Source: Escherichia coli (GTDB taxonomy: Bacteria > Pseudomonadota > Gammaproteobacteria > Enterobacterales > Enterobacteriaceae). From it: a DNA stretch of 64,000 nt. The DNA lies in assembly GCF_009931435.1 (NCBI RefSeq), contig NZ_CP043414.1. One strand, 5' to 3'. Numbering within the stretch: the first letter of the stretch is position 1; every line of letters begins with the position of its first letter. Below are positions 6,329 to 59,103 of this stretch, in pieces. Made by a program: the position numbers and the translations under genes. Below the pieces are notes generated by a model, which was not told the origin of the DNA, ran no database searches, and was given only the letters and a program-made list of their open reading frames with translations.

Positions 6329-7573
6329 ATGGCAACACTAACCACCACCCAAACGTCACCGTCGCTGCTTGGCGGCGTGGTGATTATCGGCGGCACCATT
6401 ATTGGCGCAGGGATGTTTTCTCTGCCAGTGGTCATGTCCGGTGCGTGGTTCTTCTGGTCAATGGCGGCGCTGATCTTTACCTGGTTTTGTATGCTGCATT
6501 CCGGCTTGATGATTCTGGAAGCTAACCTGAATTATCGAATTGGCTCGAGCTTTGACACCATCACCAAAGACTTGCTGGGCAAAGGCTGGAACGTGGTCAA
6601 CGGCATTTCCATTGCCTTTGTGCTCTATATCCTGACCTATGCCTATATTTCTGCCAGCGGTTCGATTCTGCATCACACCTTCGCGGAGATGTCGCTGAAT
6701 GTTCCGGCACGAGCTGCAGGTTTTGGTTTTGCGCTACTGGTGGCGTTTGTGGTGTGGTTGAGCACCAAAGCCGTCAGCCGGATGACGGCGATTGTGCTTG
6801 GGGCGAAAGTTATTACCTTCTTCCTCACTTTCGGCAGTTTGCTGGGGCATGTGCAGCCTGCGACATTGTTTAACGTCGCGGAAAGCAATGCGTCTTATGC
6901 ACCGTATCTGTTGATGACCCTACCGTTCTGTCTGGCCTCATTTGGTTATCACGGTAACGTGCCGAGCCTGATGAAGTATTACGGCAAAGATCCGAAAACT
7001 ATCGTGAAATGCCTGGTCTACGGTACGCTGATGGCGCTGGCGCTGTATACCATCTGGTTGCTGGCGACGATGGGCAACATCCCTCGTCCGGAGTTTATCG
7101 GAATCGCCGAGAAGGGCGGTAATATTGATGTGCTGGTACAGGCATTAAGCGGTGTATTGAACAGCCGTAGCCTGGACCTTCTGCTGGTCGTGTTCTCAAA
7201 CTTTGCAGTGGCGAGTTCGTTCCTCGGCGTAACGCTGGGTTTGTTTGACTATCTGGCAGATCTGTTTGGTTTTGACGACTCTGCCCTGGGCCGCTTGAAA
7301 ACGGCACTGTTGACCTTTGCACCGCCTGTCGTGGGTGGCCTGCTGTTCCCGAACGGATTCCTGTACGCCATTGGTTATGCTGGCTTAGCGGCTACCATCT
7401 GGGCTGCAATTGTTCCGGCGCTGTTGGCCCGCGCATCGCGTAAACGCTTTGGCAGCCCGAAATTCCGTGTCTGGGGCGGCAAGCCGATGATTGCACTGAT
7501 TCTGGTGTTTGGTGTTGGCAACGCACTGGTGCATATTTTATCGAGCTTTAATTTGCTGCCGGTGTATCAGTAA
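6329..7573 (+). CDS. mtr: tryptophan-specific permease Mtr (aromatic amino acid/H+ symporter family)
   Basis: 414 aa polytopic membrane protein [33 protein letters not shown]... Confidence 0.93.
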
Positions 7574-7579
7574 TCAGCG

Positions 7580-7685
7580 GTGCCTTATCCGACATTTCTG
7601 CTGCCTACACAATGCCTGATGTGCTTCGCTTATCAGGCCTACGTAGGACAGCGTTGCCAGCTCGGATAAGGCTTCCCACGTTAAA
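7580..7685. repeat. REP/BIME palindromic elements (2-3 units)
   Basis: gccttatccgacat..., gcttatcaggcctacgtagg..., ctcggataaggc units in the mtr-yhbW convergent gap. Confidence 0.8.
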
Positions 7686-7690
7686 ACACA

Positions 7691-8698
7691 CTATCCCAGT
7701 AACTCTTCCTTAACATCCATCGCCAGCTCAAACGAATGCAGGCGCGCCTGGTGATCGAAAATCTGCCCGTTAACCATAATCTCATCCGCGTCGGTTTCGC
7801 GCAGGATCGACTGCAAACCATGACGCACTTTCGCTTTATCACCCACCAGCGACATACTCAGCGCCTGCTGCACGCCATACTGCTCAGACGGTGACCAGAA
7901 CTGATCCATATTTTGAATCGGTGGCGGCAGTTGCCCGGTTTCACCGCGGCGCAGCTTCACAAAGGCTTGCTGCATTGAGGTAAACAGAAATTCAGCGTCG
8001 CGGTTGCTGTCGGCGGCGATAATATTGATGCACACCATCGCATACGGTTTTTCCAGTCGTGCCGACGGTTTGAAGTTGCTGCGATAAAGATGCAGCGCCT
8101 GGAATAGCATATCCGGTGCGAAGTGTGAGGCAAACGCGAACGGCAGACCAAGCTGCGCCGCCAGTTGTGCACTGTAAAGGCTGGAGCCTAATAACCACAC
8201 GGGGATTTTCTCGCCATAGCCTGGTACCGGGCGCACATGCGGATTGGGATCGCGGGCGTCAAACCAGTCCACCAGCTCCGCGACATCGCGGGGGAAATTA
8301 TCAATATCGCCGCTCATATGACGACGTAGAGCCATCATGGTTCGCTGGTCACTACCCGGAGCACGGCCCAGCCCCAAATCGATTCGCCCCGGATAGAGCG
8401 TATTGAGCGTGCCGAACTGTTCGGCGATCACCAACGGTGAGTGGTTTGGTAACATCACGCCGCCAGACCCCAGATGCAGCGTAGTGGTATTCGCCGCCAG
8501 ATAGCCAATCAAAACTGATGTTGCAGCACTGGCAATACCGGTCATATTGTGGTGTTCTGCCAGCCAGTAGCGATGATAGCCGCGCTTTTCAGCCAGACGG
8601 GCGAGGTCGAGAGAGTGGGAGAACGCTTCTCGCGCTGAAGAACCTTCTGGGATGGGGGCCAGATCGAGTAGCGAAAACGCAGTGGTTTTATCAGTCAT
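7691..8698 (-). CDS. yhbW: luciferase-like (LLM-class) flavin-dependent monooxygenase
   Basis: 335 aa ORF; [19 protein letters not shown]...; position after mtr. Confidence 0.85.
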
Positions 8699-8778
8699 AA
8701 CAGCTCACTTTGTTACCGATTAATCTTTAATACTGCATTAAAGGGTAGTTAAAGTTGTTAACAAAGTGAGCTATTTGC

Positions 8779-9657
8779 TTAGGCTTGCAGTTCCAGCCCA
8801 GCCAGCCGTCTCCAGTAGCCGTTACAGTCGCTGTTTGCCGTCAACGGGAGTGGTGCAGCGCCATTTTCATTAGCGCGGAAGGCGTCGAGCATCGCGAAAG
8901 TGTCAGTACCCTGCGGTGACAGGCGGACCACATCAACCAGCCCCTGCATGGATGCCAGCTCGTTACCGAGGTTGTACACGTAGCCGCTCATGGTCTGAAT
9001 GCCATTGAGCACAAACACTTGTTGGTTTTCCTGCGACAGCACGTTGCGCCCGTTCGGATACTTAATGCAGCAGGTTTCACACTCATCTTTTGGGCGGTCT
9101 TCCGAACGCGCGGTAAAGCAGCGGGCGGAGTAGGCCAGCGGCAGATGACCGTAGCTCAAGACTTCCACTTCAAACTGGTTGCGAATGCCCAGCTCATCGC
9201 ACTGATTAAGCAGATTCACCAGCCAGTCGCGGGAAAGTTCCACCGGCATACACCAGCGCATCATTCCCTGTTTGAGCAATATTTTCAGCGTCACCGCGTT
9301 GTAGCAGTTCAGAGCGTGTCCGGCGACGAACGGCAGTTTGCGCTCAGCGCACATATTCACCACGCCGAGATCGCTGGCTTCAATCAGAAACTCACCGTTC
9401 TCAACATAGCGTTTCAGTTCGCCCAGTTCGGAGGATGCCTGCACCAGCGCCAGCGTGGAGAGCACAATCTGCTTGCCACTTCCGGCGAGCGATTTTGCCA
9501 TCTCCAGCCAGTCGCCAACTTTGGTTGCCCGGCGTTTGCTACAGACCGCTTCACCGAGATAAATCACGTCTGCGCTGCTGGCGGCGGCCTGCTGATAAAA
9601 ATCTTCCAGCGTCTCTTTTGGCCAGTACCACAGCACCGGCCCTAAGGAATATTTCAT
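8779..9657 (-). CDS. ubiV: peptidase-U32 family protein, O2-independent ubiquinone biosynthesis hydroxylase subunit UbiV (YhbV)
   Basis: ORF 8779..9675; start set at MKYSLGPVLWYW (292 aa); U32 family; adjacent to ubiU. Confidence 0.85.
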   Translation of the reverse strand: MKYSLGPVLWYWPKETLEDFYQQAAASSADVIYLGEAVCSKRRATKVGDWLEMAKSLAGSGKQIVLSTLALVQASSELGELKRYVENGEFLIEASDLGVVNMCAERKLPFVAGHALNCYNAVTLKILLKQGMMRWCMPVELSRDWLVNLLNQCDELGIRNQFEVEVLSYGHLPLAYSARCFTARSEDRPKDECETCCIKYPNGRNVLSQENQQVFVLNGIQTMSGYVYNLGNELASMQGLVDVVRLSPQGTDTFAMLDAFRANENGAAPLPLTANSDCNGYWRRLAGLELQA

Positions 9658-9665
9658 TACTTTTC

Positions 9666-10661
9666 TCACTGCCATTTACGGTGATACGCGCCAAGAGTGG
9701 TTTGTGTGCCTTCGGACATCGACCCGAGCGTCTCCATCCACGCGCTTTGCGGCACGAAGTTTTGCGGATCGGCCTTACAACGGTCGATAGCCTGACGCCA
9801 GACTTTCGCTACCTGGCTGACATACGCAGGGCTACGCTGGCGGCCTTCAATTTTCACCGAAGCGATATTCGCCGCCATTAACTCCGGCAGTAGCTCAAGG
9901 GTATTGAGACTGGTTGGTTCTTCCAGCGCATGATAGCGCTCGCCGTCCACCAGATAACGCCCTTTACACAGCGTCGGATAACCTGCGTTTTCGCCGTCCT
10001 GATAACGGTCGATCAGCACTTCGTTCAGGCGGGATTCCAGCCCCTGCGGCGTTTGCTGCCAGCGCACGAAACGGGCCGGAGAACATGCCCCCACGGTGTT
10101 GGGCGACTCACCCGTCAGATACGACGACAGATAGCAACGACCTTCCGACATAATGCACAGACTGCCGAAAGCGAACACTTCCAGCGGTACAGGCGTGACC
10201 CGCGCCAGTTGTTTCACCTGATGAATCGATAACACGCGCGGCAGCACCACGCGGGCAACGTCAAAATGGCGATGATAAAAGTGAATCGCCTCTTCATTGG
10301 TCGCCGAAGCCTGCACTGACACATGACGCTCAATATGCGGGTAACGCTCGGCGGCGTACTCCAGCATGGCGAGGTCGGCGAGAATCAGCGCGTCGGCACC
10401 CAGCTGCGCCGCCATATCCACGGCGCGCTGCCAGCGGGCGTAACCGTCCGGATGCGCAAAAGTGTTAATCGCGATGTGAAGTTTGCGGCGATGTTGATGG
10501 ACAAAACTCACCGCTTCCTGCAATTTTTTCTCGGTAAAGTTAAGGCCGGCGAAGTGACGGGCATTGGTATCATCTTTTAGCCCGATATAAACAGCATCTG
10601 CGCCGTTTTCGATGGCCGCCTTAAGCGCCGGGAGATTTCCGGCAGGGCAGAGCAGCTCCAT
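9666..10661 (-). CDS. ubiU: peptidase-U32 family protein UbiU (YhbU), 331 aa
   Basis: ORF 9666..10688; start set at MELLCPAGNLPALKAA; U32 family with Cys cluster. Confidence 0.85.
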   Translation of the reverse strand: MELLCPAGNLPALKAAIENGADAVYIGLKDDTNARHFAGLNFTEKKLQEAVSFVHQHRRKLHIAINTFAHPDGYARWQRAVDMAAQLGADALILADLAMLEYAAERYPHIERHVSVQASATNEEAIHFYHRHFDVARVVLPRVLSIHQVKQLARVTPVPLEVFAFGSLCIMSEGRCYLSSYLTGESPNTVGACSPARFVRWQQTPQGLESRLNEVLIDRYQDGENAGYPTLCKGRYLVDGERYHALEEPTSLNTLELLPELMAANIASVKIEGRQRSPAYVSQVAKVWRQAIDRCKADPQNFVPQSAWMETLGSMSEGTQTTLGAYHRKWQ

Positions 10662-10869
10662 AATTTTTCCTGAAGGGTGCGCTATCAAAGCGCAAAAATG
10701 TTAACGAACTGGGATTTTAGTTAACCTTGCTGCGACAATTTTTGATTTAAGGCAGTTAAAGTTGTATTGGTGGTAGCAGCAATTTCATATGGAATTGTTG
10801 ATTTATACCGCTATGTTATTTTTCTGATATGGCAAAATAGGATGATTGTTGAAACAGGGAGTAAAACTC

Positions 10870-11394
10870 GTGTTGGATAAACTGCGTTCCCGTATTGTGC
10901 ATTTGGGGCCATCTCTGTTGAGTGTACCGGTAAAACTGACGCCATTTGCGCTAAAACGCCAGGTTCTTGAGCAGGTCTTAAGCTGGCAATTCCGTCAGGC
11001 GCTGGATGATGGCGAGCTGGAGTTTCTTGAAGGCCGCTGGTTAAGTATTCATGTGCGTGATATTGACCTGCAATGGTTTACCTCGGTGGTGAATGGCAAA
11101 CTGGTCGTTAGCCAGAACGCGCAAGCTGATGTGAGTTTTAGTGCCGACGCCAGCGATCTGCTGATGATTGCGGCGCGTAAACAGGATCCGGACACGCTCT
11201 TCTTCCAGCGTCGGCTGGTGATTGAAGGCGATACGGAGCTGGGATTATATGTGAAAAACCTGATGGACGCCATTGAACTGGAGCAAATGCCGAAAGCCTT
11301 ACGCATGATGCTGCTGCAACTGGCGGATTTTGTTGAGGCGGGAATGAAAACCACGCCTGAAACCAAACAGACATCGGTAGGTGAACCATGCTAA
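10870..11394 (+). CDS. ubiT: SCP2-domain lipid-binding protein UbiT (YhbT), GTG start
   Basis: ORF 10846..11394; 174-aa version begins VLDKLRSRIVHLGP; divergent from ubiUV. Confidence 0.8.
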   Translation: MLDKLRSRIVHLGPSLLSVPVKLTPFALKRQVLEQVLSWQFRQALDDGELEFLEGRWLSIHVRDIDLQWFTSVVNGKLVVSQNAQADVSFSADASDLLMIAARKQDPDTLFFQRRLVIEGDTELGLYVKNLMDAIELEQMPKALRMMLLQLADFVEAGMKTTPETKQTSVGEPC

Positions 11395-11891
11395 TTCGAG
11401 TAGAAATTCCAATTGATGCGCCGGGTATTGATGCCCTGCTGCGTCGTTCATTCGAAAGCGATGCGGAAGCGAAGCTGGTTCACGATCTGCGTGAAGATGG
11501 CTTTCTGACGCTGGGGCTGGTGGCGACAGATGACGAAGGTCAGGTCATTGGCTATGTGGCATTCAGTCCGGTTGATGTGCAGGGCGAAGACCTGCAATGG
11601 GTCGGCATGGCACCGCTGGCGGTAGATGAAAAATACCGTGGACAGGGACTGGCACGCCAACTGGTCTATGAAGGACTCGATTCGCTTAATGAGTTCGGCT
11701 ATGCCGCAGTGGTGACGCTGGGCGATCCGGCGCTGTACAGCCGTTTCGGCTTTGAACTGGCGGCACATCACGATCTGCGTTGCCGCTGGCCGGGCACTGA
11801 AAGCGCCTTCCAGGTACATCGTTTAGCGGATGATGCGCTGAATGGCGTAACCGGTTTGGTTGAGTATCACGAACACTTCAATCGCTTTTAA
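11388..11891 (+). CDS. yhbS: GNAT-family N-acetyltransferase YhbS
   Basis: 167 aa; acetyl-CoA-binding-like QGLARQLV motif; 7-nt overlap with ubiT stop. Confidence 0.85.
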
Positions 11892-12180
11892 TCTTTGGGG
11901 TTTGCAGGCTGCTCAACAGTTCTGCAAACCCTGCGCCTTCTGCTACCAGACGCTCTTTTTGCCGTTTGGTCAGTTGCTTGATGCGATATTCCATCCGTAA
12001 CGCCAGCGAGCGGTCGCCCACTGGCGCGGAAAACGCCAGCGTCAGTTCTCCTTTCCCGCGCAGTGCTTTCGCCCCTTTTCCGCTTTGGTGCTGCTGATAG
12101 CGGCGTTCAACATCCGTGGTGATCCCGGTATAAAGCTTATTGTCGGCGGTACGGATCAAGTAAAGAAACCAGGGTGTCAT
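11878..12180 (-). CDS. yhbQ: GIY-YIG domain protein YhbQ (UPF0213)
   Basis: ORF 11878..12192; start set at [27 protein letters not shown] (GIY-YIG signature). Confidence 0.85.
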
Positions 12181-12230
12181 CGTCTGCGTCACATGTTAAG
12201 GTCAGGCCCACAGTATAAAAGAGAACAGCT

Positions 12231-12653
12231 ATGGAAACACTCACCGCCATCAGCCGTTGGCTGGCAAAACAACATGTTGTCACCTGGTGTGTGCAGCAGG
12301 AAGGGGAATTGTGGTGCGCCAATGCCTTTTATCTTTTTGATGCACAGAAAGTTGCCTTCTACATTTTGACGGAGGAAAAAACGCGTCACGCGCAGATGAG
12401 TGGGCCGCAGGCGGCAGTTGCTGGAACGGTAAACGGTCAGCCGAAAACGGTAGCGTTAATTCGCGGCGTGCAGTTTAAAGGTGAGATCCGCAGACTGGAA
12501 GGTGAGGAAAGCGACTTTGCGCGCAAGGCGTATAATCGTCGCTTTCCGGTTGCCAGAATGCTGTCGGCGCCGGTGTGGGAAATCCGGCTTGATGAAATCA
12601 AATTCACTGACAACACGCTGGGCTTTGGTAAAAAAATGATTTGGCTACGTAGC

Positions 12654-24924: not shown

Positions 24925-25050
24925 CTTGCCTTTCGTTTCATTTCACTTGGTGATTCGTTTCGTTGATTAAAATCTATAGAAAAGAAATCGAAAGTTCAAT
25001 GGAGAAAAAAGAAATAAAACGAAATTTGTGATCGTTGAAAGAAAAGACAA
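24925..25050. promoter_or_regulatory. agaS promoter region with clustered AgaR-operator-like TTTC/GAAA-rich motifs
   Basis: ctttcgtttcatttc, attcgtttcgttg, gaaatcgaaag, gaaataaaacgaaat seen upstream of agaS. Confidence 0.55.
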
Positions 25051-40831: not shown

Positions 40832-41205
40832 TGTGCAATATTCTCCAGCCAGGGGTTATTAAAATGAGGACCTGGTCTCATTTAAAAATAAATGACTTCA
40901 TTGGGTGAAATAAGAATGTCAGGAGTTTAAACGCAGAAATGTGATCAATGTCAATCATTTCAGGGATTGCAGTGCCGCCCGGCAGGGTAAAGCGCAAATC
41001 TGTGCTTTAGCGCGCAACCTTATGTGCATATGCTCAAAATAATATTTAAATAGTAATAATTAAATTAGCATTTGCACAATGATTATTATTCTCTCGCTGC
41101 TTATACTAATTCCTGAGTTCATTGTCGTAACGGCATAAATTAAACTCATAAATAACACCTTCCCCATAATAATAAAAATCAGCATAAGTACCCGAGGTAA
41201 ATAAA

Positions 41206-48138: not shown

Positions 48139-48513
48139 CTATGGTGACAGTAGAAACGAGGGGAAACGATTGCATTCACAAAATGACGTCCTGTAAGAAG
48201 GGTGAAAGTTGATGTTAATCAATTGTTCGAGATGATCAATATCTGTATTCAAAATTTTAAAACATTGATAAAATAAATGTTTGTCCTCCAACAAATAGCG
48301 AGAAAAAATGTGACGTGCCGCATTATTTATCGCTGAAAATGATTTATTTATAATAAAATTTGATAACTTGCTCATAAAATTTAACTCAAAATTTGCCTGG
48401 TAATTATCCGCTAATTGCTTGAAATATGGTCGCAGCTGCTTTTTTTTATTAACCACATAACGAATGATGTTATCGCCATAAAATATGGTTATCCCTGTCA
48501 TTTTTTTTGACAA
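48139..48513 (-). CDS. tdcR: AT-rich small ORF at the tdcR position, divergent from tdcA; true start uncertain (internal Met at MSKLSNFII)
   Basis: 124-codon ORF, location upstream of and divergent from tdcABC. Confidence 0.55.
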   Translation of the reverse strand: MSKKMTGITIFYGDNIIRYVVNKKKQLRPYFKQLADNYQANFELNFMSKLSNFIINKSFSAINNAARHIFSRYLLEDKHLFYQCFKILNTDIDHLEQLININFHPSYRTSFCECNRFPSFLLSP

Positions 48514-57744: not shown

Positions 57745-59076
57745 ATGGAAATTGCATCGAATAAAGGCGTCATTGCAGACGCATCGACCCCGGCAGGTCG
57801 TGCTGGAATGAGTGAGAGCGAGTGGCGAGAAGCGATCAAATTCGACAGTACTGACACCGGCTGGGTGATTATGAGTATCGGGATGGCGATTGGCGCAGGG
57901 ATTGTTTTTCTCCCGGTGCAGGTCGGTTTGATGGGATTGTGGGTATTTTTGCTCTCATCGGTGATTGGTTACCCGGCAATGTATCTGTTTCAGCGGTTGT
58001 TTATTAATACGCTGGCAGAATCACCAGAATGTAAAGATTACCCGAGCGTCATTAGCGGTTATTTAGGTAAAAACTGGGGCATCCTGTTAGGTGCACTCTA
58101 TTTCGTAATGCTGGTGATCTGGATGTTCGTCTATTCCACCGCCATCACCAACGATAGTGCTTCCTACCTGCATACCTTCGGCGTGACGGAAGGGTTGCTG
58201 TCAGACAGTCCCTTTTATGGTCTGGTACTGATTTGCATTCTGGTGGCGATCTCCTCACGCGGCGAGAAATTGTTATTCAAAATTTCGACGGGGATGGTGC
58301 TGACCAAGCTGCTGGTGGTCGCGGCGCTGGGCGTGTCGATGGTGGGAATGTGGCATCTGTATAACGTCGGTTCGCTACCGCCTCTGGGGCTACTGGTGAA
58401 AAACGCCATTATTACTCTGCCGTTTACCCTGACGTCGATTCTGTTTATCCAGACGTTAAGCCCGATGGTGATCTCTTATCGCTCGCGGGAAAAATCCATT
58501 GAAGTGGCGCGGCATAAAGCATTGCGGGCAATGAATATCGCGTTTGGCATTTTGTTTGTCACCGTCTTTTTCTACGCCGTGTCGTTCACGCTGGCGATGG
58601 GACATGACGAAGCGGTAAAAGCCTACGAGCAGAATATTTCCGCGCTGGCAATTGCGGCGCAGTTTATTAGCGGTGACGGCGCAGCGTGGGTGAAAGTGGT
58701 CAGCGTCATTCTTAATATTTTTGCCGTAATGACTGCATTCTTTGGTGTCTATTTAGGTTTTCGCGAAGCAACGCAAGGGATCGTAATGAACATCCTGCGT
58801 CGTAAGATGCCCGCCGAGAAGATTAACGAAAATCTCGTTCAGCGCGGCATCATGATTTTCGCCATTTTACTGGCCTGGAGCGCCATCGTACTGAACGCAC
58901 CGGTGTTGAGCTTCACCTCTATCTGTAGCCCGATTTTCGGCATGGTAGGGTGCTTGATCCCGGCGTGGCTGGTTTACAAAGTACCGGCATTGCACAAATA
59001 CAAAGGGATGTCTCTGTACCTGATTATCGTCACTGGTTTGTTGCTTTGTGTATCTCCGTTCCTGGCATTTTCTTGA
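57745..59076 (+). CDS. cyuP: HAAAP-family amino-acid transporter (cysteine/D-serine importer YhaO/CyuP)
   Basis: 443-aa membrane ORF immediately upstream of cyuA. Confidence 0.85.
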   Translation: MEIASNKGVIADASTPAGRAGMSESEWREAIKFDSTDTGWVIMSIGMAIGAGIVFLPVQVGLMGLWVFLLSSVIGYPAMYLFQRLFINTLAESPECKDYPSVISGYLGKNWGILLGALYFVMLVIWMFVYSTAITNDSASYLHTFGVTEGLLSDSPFYGLVLICILVAISSRGEKLLFKISTGMVLTKLLVVAALGVSMVGMWHLYNVGSLPPLGLLVKNAIITLPFTLTSILFIQTLSPMVISYRSREKSIEVARHKALRAMNIAFGILFVTVFFYAVSFTLAMGHDEAVKAYEQNISALAIAAQFISGDGAAWVKVVSVILNIFAVMTAFFGVYLGFREATQGIVMNILRRKMPAEKINENLVQRGIMIFAILLAWSAIVLNAPVLSFTSICSPIFGMVGCLIPAWLVYKVPALHKYKGMSLYLIIVTGLLLCVSPFLAFS

Positions 59077-59103
59077 TTTACCTGAAATTTTAAGGTTTTT
59101 ATT

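Follow-up and report, generated by a model that had tools for sequence, protein, structure and literature searches.

The closest described counterpart of the locus studied here is that of Escherichia coli K-12 MG1655, where ubiU (b3158) and ubiV (b3159) diverge from ubiT (b3157) across a spacer of 208 bp (PMC6747719, PMC10470549). Without O2, the hydroxylations of ubiquinone biosynthesis require the UbiU-UbiV heterodimer (PMC6747719), eight cysteines were shown experimentally to be the ligands of its two [4Fe-4S] clusters (Pelosi 2019, PMC6747719), and the literature gives prephenate as the oxygen donor of these reactions. UbiT probably acts as an accessory factor that binds lipids, and its homologue in Pseudomonas aeruginosa binds phosphatidic acid (PMC6747719). 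The same three proteins make up an O2-independent ubiquinone pathway in P. aeruginosa, where it is essential for denitrification and where the genes form one operon, ubiUVT (PA3913-PA3911; Vo 2020, bioRxiv 10.1101/2020.03.22.002311). Here, we analysed a stretch of 64,000 nucleotides of E. coli DNA (contig NZ_CP043414.1 of assembly GCF_009931435.1; hereafter the window), for which a preliminary description had proposed a divergent ubiT/ubiUV unit at 8779-11394. We are almost certain that this is the E. coli ubiT/ubiUV locus of O2-independent ubiquinone biosynthesis, that it is controlled by FNR, and that its regulatory region is essentially the one of K-12. Locus, function and FNR sites have already been published for K-12, and the identification has little consequence for genome annotation.

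The window shares with K-12 the order and orientation of the three genes, the length of the spacer, and the neighbours on both sides (yhbW, mtr and deaD on one; yhbS, yhbQ, yhbP and yhbO on the other). Unlike in P. aeruginosa, ubiT is divergent from ubiUV and paired with hqbA. The two FNR sites mapped in K-12, F1 and F2, are found unchanged in the window, together with identical -10 elements and Shine-Dalgarno sequences, and the differences from K-12 are purely allelic. The spacer differs at only two of its 208 positions (10677, G/T; 10690, G/A), both in the 5' untranslated region (5'UTR) of ubiUV and outside the sites and promoter elements, so that the published K-12 mapping transfers directly. 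The proposal of FNR-dependent promoters in the divergent region is upheld: both of the sites proven by mutagenesis in K-12 are present in it. The estimate of about 180 bp for the divergent region was too short, as it measures 208 bp.

The identity of the proteins is well supported. Each passes the corresponding NCBIfam equivalog model: UbiU (NF047963 quinone_UbiU, 559.8 bits for a cut-off of 440), UbiV (NF047965 quinone_UbiV, 363.7 bits for a cut-off of 275) and UbiT (NF047962 SCP2_dom_UbiT, 153.6 bits for a cut-off of 46.9). The eight cysteines that bind the clusters in K-12 are all present, as C169, C176, C193 and C232 in UbiU (CX6CX16CX38C) and as C39, C180, C193 and C197 in UbiV (CXnCX12CX3C). 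The coding DNA is 96-99% identical to that of K-12 and the proteins at least 99%, with five amino-acid changes in total, all conservative (N127H and I190V in UbiU; E19D and T26A in UbiV; A162T in UbiT). Equivalog matches, cysteines and near-identity to the K-12 proteins together support the proposed role in O2-independent ubiquinone biosynthesis. By homology with the proteins studied experimentally in K-12, and in P. aeruginosa for the lipid, UbiU and UbiV would form the heterodimer and be required for anaerobic production of ubiquinone-8 (UQ8), and UbiT would bind lipid.

The names attached to these genes might suggest that UbiU and UbiV are peptidases or collagenases rather than subunits of a hydroxylase. 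Both match the Pfam family Peptidase_U32 (PF01136; 227.1 bits for UbiU and 38.3 for UbiV, cut-off 22.4), as UbiT matches SCP2 (PF02036, 71.5 bits), and the top NCBIfam match of the ubiV product is PRK15447, 'U32 family peptidase', which is also its RefSeq product name. Yet, the two proteins score above the cut-offs of the UbiU and UbiV models, retain the ligands of the Fe-S clusters, and differ by only two residues each from K-12 proteins that are required for anaerobic ubiquinone hydroxylation. Moreover, a paralogous U32 family, TrhP (YegQ), is itself a prephenate-dependent hydroxylase, and related four-cysteine motifs are found across U32 families (PMC6747719). UbiU matches the TrhP model over its full length, with 165.6 bits, far under the cut-off of 534 bits, which makes it a paralogue of the same fold family and not the same protein; the substrate of TrhP is tRNA, in which it hydroxylates uridine-34, and not a prenyl-phenol. 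A peptidase function is therefore hardly credible.

Site F1 drives ubiUV. Read on the strand of ubiU, it gives CTGCCTTAAATCAA, followed by 22 nt and the hexamer TAAAAT, a spacing that centres the site at -41.5 if transcription starts 7 nt past the hexamer. Class II FNR sites have a published range of -41.5 +/- 4 (PMC3688515). In K-12, the ubiUV transcription start site (TSS) is 36 nt downstream of F1, and changing the TTGAT of F1 to GATGA abolishes the production of UbiV (Arias-Cartin 2023, PMC10470549). Occupancy was shown by chromatin immunoprecipitation sequencing (ChIP-seq), with an FNR peak at K-12 yhbT/yhbU whose summit lies at 3,299,421-3,299,423 in old coordinates (Myers 2013, PMC3688515). 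Using the offset between the two K-12 coordinate versions (1976-1978, checked with two other published sites), this summit converts to 10745-10749 of the window, inside F1. The same study classed yhbUV as an operon under direct activation by FNR and gave aerobic/anaerobic mRNA ratios of 0.070 for yhbU and 0.115 for yhbV, and similar ones for yhbT (0.49) and yhbS (0.47) (Myers 2013, PMC3688515).

The arrangement at ubiT is similar. Between F2 and the extended -10 element TGG-CAAAAT lie 21 nt, which place the centre of F2 at about -40.5. In K-12, the proximal promoter P2 has its TSS 33 nt downstream of F2, and the distal promoter P1, which is not activated by Fnr, has its own 19 nt upstream of F2; deletion of F2, or the change of its TTGAT to CATGA, suppresses the anaerobic induction of UbiT and keeps its basal level (PMC10470549). 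The positions of F1 and F2 deduced from the spacings agree with these published distances. The sigma-70 ChIP peak at K-12 yhbT/yhbU roughly doubles in anaerobiosis, from 659 to 1332 (PMC3688515), and it converts to about 10841-10843 of the window, at P2. A separate laboratory found by western blot that UbiT is induced about 35-fold, in a manner that depends on Fnr and not on ArcA (PMC10710024).

These promoters resemble the class II FNR promoters of narG, nirB, dmsA and yfiD in the position of the site near -41.5, in the lack of a -35 element (PMC3688515) and, according to the K-12 data for this locus, in the anaerobic rise of sigma-70 occupancy and mRNA. In contrast with these models, two sites here drive two divergent promoters placed back to back. 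The sites also differ in quality, since those of the model promoters are near-perfect palindromes, such as TTGATTTACATCAA at nirB with a published 17 bits, whereas F1 and F2 fit the consensus in one half only and reach 8.7 and 2.9 bits in our matrix. A scan with the sigma-70 consensus between 10600 and 10930 gave no -35/-10 pair at ubiUVp, ubiT P1 or ubiT P2, which for ubiUVp and P2 is as expected of activator-dependent promoters. The single pair that it returned lies inside the 5' end of ubiU and is irrelevant.

Formal scanning for FNR sites was much less conclusive. There is no full TTGAT-N4-ATCAA box in the divergent region, where F1 and F2 each fit 7 of the 10 consensus positions, and the remark in the preliminary description that no box could be picked by eye was right: each site consists of one perfect and one degenerate half-site. 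Both keep the FNR contact positions T2, G3 and C12, but they are weak matches because the degenerate half retains only the key C at position 12. We scanned the whole window with a symmetrised position weight matrix (PWM) built from the 63 sites of Table S6 of Myers 2013 that are located at ChIP-seq peaks. F1 scored 8.69 bits (ln p -8.72, rank 19 of about 64,000 positions), and its ln p equals the published PatSer value for the yhbT/yhbU peak (Myers 2013). Tested against shuffled sequences for the window alone, F1 had p = 0.01.

A number of observations weigh against this interpretation. The consensus TTGATNNNNATCAA with up to three mismatches has 345 matches in the window, F1 and F2 included, for 275 expected; two matches in 208 bp are thus close to chance and the consensus scan is uninformative. 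F1 falls short of ln p -10.75, the published stringent cut-off, and so does F2, whose 2.95 bits (ln p -6.24, rank 176) are at the level of chance and whose shuffle test gave p = 0.09. The positions -41.5 and -40.5 carry an uncertainty of 1-2 nt, because the TSSs were taken from a verbal description. The TTGATT of F1 (10742-10747) lies at 17 nt from the -10 of P1 and might conceivably act as its -35, but this is doubtful, because the published mutation of F1 leaves the level of UbiT unchanged. Finally, FNR occupancy, the dependence on each site and the biochemistry come from experiments in K-12, and would hold in the strain of the window by virtue of its similarity to K-12.

One might thus propose that both TTGAT-containing 14-mers are chance matches, and that the anaerobic induction is indirect, by another FNR-dependent regulator or by ArcA. 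The consensus scan does not discriminate between this and direct control, the score of F2 is what chance would produce, and yhbT/yhbU is not among the 187 high-confidence predicted FNR sites of K-12 despite its clear ChIP peak (Myers 2013, PMC3688515). The experiments decide otherwise: mutating each TTGAT abolishes the induction of the corresponding gene only (PMC10470549), the ChIP-seq summit falls on F1, and arcA is without effect on the induction of UbiT (PMC10710024). The conservation described below also speaks against chance, and we regard this alternative as very improbable. The PWM scan of 10662-10869, which had been suggested as a check, gave a modest F1 and an F2 at chance level, and the comparison with the published mapping, suggested alongside it, found both sites. 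The idea that the lack of an FNR-like site on scanning would refute FNR control was misleading, since proven sites can score at or below chance in consensus or PWM scans.

To place these sites in an evolutionary context, we used a degenerate DNA pattern for the N-terminus of UbiU and retrieved 120 loci from other species; since the pattern is located in coding sequence, it introduces no bias in the spacer. Together with the window and two E. coli references this made 123 loci, in 82 of which ubiT is found within 1.5 kb of ubiU and in divergent orientation. The other 41, mostly from Vibrio, Photobacterium, Aliivibrio and Enterovibrio, have no ubiT homologue in the available 1.5 kb upstream of ubiU, a stretch that is truncated in some of them; others may have another arrangement, such as the operon of P. 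aeruginosa. Footprints were counted in 79 divergent loci, after dropping three other E. coli sequences. An FNR-type box of at least 4.8 bits followed by 21-23 nt and TAnnnT occurs in 76 of them, for 1.9 +/- 1.4 in shuffled spacers. The orthologous F1 box is present in 76-77 loci. Of the 77 loci with a box, 73 have exactly 22 nt between it and TAnnnT, and T2, T11, C12 and A13 are invariant. The F2-type arrangement (TTGAT half, C12, 21 nt, CAnAAT) is found in 57 of the 79 loci, for 12.0 +/- 3.4 expected. In Shewanella, Colwellia, Thalassotalea and their relatives, the box at the position of F1 is near consensus, with 11-15 bits. The loci are phylogenetically related and the counts are not independent events, even if they span many genera and several orders.

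An alignment of the spacers of 17 Enterobacteriaceae genera shows the same elements as islands of conservation: the region around the +1 of ubiUV, TAAAAT, F1, the P1 block TGTATTGGT, F2, the extended -10 of P2, and the Shine-Dalgarno sequence. The block TCCTG, on the plus strand over the Shine-Dalgarno sequence of ubiU, is also conserved in the 17 genera. The geometry of box, 22 nt and -10, combined with cross-species footprinting, clearly recovers these FNR sites. The architecture with F1 at -41.5 is common to the divergent ubiT/ubiU loci of many gammaproteobacterial genera, which extends the mapping published for E. coli and supports the view that control of anaerobic ubiquinone synthesis by the FNR family is an old and conserved trait.

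FNR contacts alone do not explain why halves that depart from the consensus are conserved. The promoter-distal half of F1 reads CTGCC (GGCAG on the plus strand, 10751-10755) in 65-67 of 77 loci, which belong to Enterobacterales, Vibrionaceae, Aeromonas and Moritella. Within Enterobacteriaceae, F2 keeps its degenerate half (10807-10811) in the form (G/A)CCGC. Loci of the Alteromonadales type instead have near-consensus halves. In addition, two GTTAAC palindromes at 10700-10705 and 10720-10725, 20 bp apart, bracket the -10 and +1 of ubiUV. These elements could be used by a second DNA-binding protein, or answer a structural requirement involving CTGCC in F1, GCCGC in F2 and the GTTAAC pair. This would be compatible with control by FNR, and it has some appeal: CTGCC persists in several orders even though FNR favours C least of all bases at position 1, the GTTAAC pair and the block ATTGTTAACGA (10695-10707) are conserved in the 17 Enterobacteriaceae genera, and the coding sequence on either side is less conserved than the spacer. 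The GTTAAC and ATTGTTAACGA elements are partly kept in Pectobacterium, Brenneria and Yersinia. Yet, no known motif was matched, the conservation of GTTAAC fades outside Enterobacteriaceae and their close relatives, the relatedness of the loci makes the counts overstate independence, and the FNR contacts at T2, G3 and C12 account for part of the conservation. We thus consider a second factor or structural requirement unlikely, though worth keeping in mind. There is a similarly small chance that the conserved extras mark either such a regulator or a low-affinity design under selection, which would set the O2 threshold at which anaerobic ubiquinone synthesis is switched on.

Three candidates for the GTTAAC and GGCAG blocks were rejected on comparison by eye with their consensus sequences. 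ArcA direct repeats would need a spacing of 11 or 22 and the spacing is 20; the -24/-12 elements of sigma-54 are off by one and have GT for GC; and the boxes of sigma-28 do not fit.

Taken together, these data are consistent with the following model of direct FNR control. In anaerobiosis, holo-FNR would bind the two sites in the 208-bp divergent region. At F1 it would act as a class II activator of the ubiUV promoter, which has a good -10 (TAAAAT) and no -35, and at F2 it would likewise activate the proximal ubiT promoter P2, by way of its extended -10 (TGnCAAAAT). The distal promoter P1 would provide a basal, FNR-independent expression of ubiT in air, and presumably of hqbA too. UbiU and UbiV, with one [4Fe-4S] cluster each bound by four cysteines, would then pair, as is required for the three ring hydroxylations without O2, and UbiT would serve this anaerobic pathway as an SCP2 lipid-binding accessory factor.

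The coordinates of genes and regulatory elements are given in Table 1. The 2.9-kb stretch around the three genes was matched in 5424 of 5426 complete E. coli genomes, at best with 99.6% identity, with yhbW, ubiV, ubiU, ubiT and yhbS annotated, and the RefSeq annotation of the best-matching genome was mapped onto the window by adding 5599 to the coordinates of the locus. The two minus-strand U32 genes and the plus-strand SCP2-like gene with a GTG start that had been described earlier are borne out by this annotation, by the Pfam matches and by the start codons. The genes were also correctly placed, but the proposed end at 11394 was too early. In K-12, hqbA lies downstream of ubiT in one operon that is induced by Fnr, and on which ArcA has no effect (PMC10710024), and as the second gene of this operon it extends the functional unit to 11891.

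Table 1. Genes and regulatory elements of the ubiT/ubiUV locus (positions in the window)
Feature	Position	Strand	Description
ubiV (yhbV)	8779-9657	-	292 aa, ATG start; mapped RefSeq annotation
ubiU (yhbU)	9666-10661	-	331 aa, ATG start; first gene of the ubiUV operon; mapped RefSeq annotation
Divergent regulatory region	10662-10869		208 bp, from ubiU to ubiT
ubiU Shine-Dalgarno AGGA	10668-10671	-	6 nt 5' of the ATG; read from the sequence
ubiUVp TSS	10705-10707	-	Approximate, +/-1-2 nt; from the published distance to F1 and 7 nt past TAAAAT (=10707)
ubiUVp -10 hexamer TAAAAT	10714-10719	-	Conserved in 17 Enterobacteriaceae genera
FNR site F1 TTGATTTAAGGCAG	10742-10755		Centre 10748.5, about -41.5 of ubiUVp; identical to published F1
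ubiT P1	10763-10779	+	Presumed -10 in the conserved TGTATTGGT block (10763-10771), hexamer approximate; TSS about 10779
FNR site F2 TTGATTTATACCGC	10798-10811		Centre 10804.5, about -40.5 of ubiT P2; identical to published F2
ubiT P2 extended -10 TGG CAAAAT	10830-10838	+	TSS about 10844-10845; T.TGGCAnAAT conserved in 17 genera
ubiT Shine-Dalgarno GGGAG	10857-10861	+	8 nt 5' of the GTG; conserved across genera
ubiT (yhbT)	10870-11394	+	174 aa, GTG start; mapped RefSeq annotation
yhbS/hqbA	11388-11891	+	GNAT acetyltransferase that binds Hfq; follows ubiT in the same operon

The stop codon of ubiU is 8 nt from the ATG of ubiV, adjacent and in the same orientation, and that of ubiT is overlapped by the ATG of yhbS/hqbA (ATGCTAA). 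Mechanical open reading frames start further upstream, at TTG 10688 for ubiU, ATG 9675 for ubiV and TTG 10846 for ubiT, but the annotated starts are those with Shine-Dalgarno sequences and conservation. The N-terminus MELLCPAGN of UbiU is common to the 120 other loci, which were retrieved with that pattern. The GTG start of ubiT aligns with the same codon in K-12, where the primer used to clone the gene swaps the G of GTG for A (PMC10470549).

The spacer stands out by its conservation within the species. It is 99.0% identical to that of K-12, for 95.2% in yhbW, 96.3% in ubiV, 96.7% in ubiU and 97.0% in yhbS, and 5197 of 5424 E. coli genomes match it at 99% identity or more, while the whole 2.9-kb region reaches this level in only 8 of the 5424. 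The ubiUV and yhbW alleles of this strain are unusually divergent for E. coli. Both substitutions of the spacer fall in a small putative hairpin of the ubiUV leader (10678-10694, minus strand), one at its base and the other at an inner pair. They shift the register of the stem and keep the stem itself, with folding energies in the 49-nt leader of -9.0 against -7.3 kcal/mol. In other genera, this place is taken by GC-rich hairpins whose length varies. A permissive Rfam search of 7500-12500 found no known RNA element; two sub-threshold matches, to a miRNA model and a CRISPR repeat model, were taken as chance.

Downstream of ubiV, the 80-bp spacer that separates it from yhbW (8699-8778, minus strand) holds an inverted repeat with arms of about 17 bp (ATAGCTCACTTTGTTAAC ... 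GGTAACAAAGTGAGCTGT), which encloses a smaller hairpin, CTTTAATGCAGTATTAAAG. The RNA is predicted to fold with -27.2 kcal/mol (z = -4.2). Conservation of the arms extends to about 20 Enterobacteriaceae loci, including those in which they enclose as much as 140 nt, and there is no covariation because both arms are invariant. A distance of 3-4 nt separates the end of the 3' arm from the ATG of yhbW, whose likely Shine-Dalgarno sequence the arm covers, and the terminator scan after ubiV found no intrinsic terminator. In K-12, yhbW is about 6.8-fold higher aerobically and ubiUV 9-14-fold higher anaerobically (Myers 2013 Table S12, PMC3688515). A possible role of the repeat is to mask the translation of yhbW on transcripts that read through from ubiUV; it could also be a pair of operator half-sites.

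The PWM scan brought up other matches. Inside ubiT, at 11273-11286 and about 110 nt before the ATG of hqbA, TTGAACTGGAGCAA scores 8.2 bits (rank 25) and may be due to chance; a possible transcription start of hqbA internal to ubiT has been mentioned (PMC10710024). Matches at 40941-40954 (13.4 bits), 59073-59086 (12.2 bits) and 24963-24976 (12.0 bits) score above F1. The best of the window, with 18.5 bits, is the perfect palindrome TTGATGTTAATCAA at 48209-48222, in the tdcR/yhaB area. Its K-12 counterpart, TTGATTAACGTCAA, is listed at yhaB with a ChIP-seq peak (Myers 2013, PMC3688515), and a single G-to-A change relative to K-12 makes the site of the window a perfect consensus.

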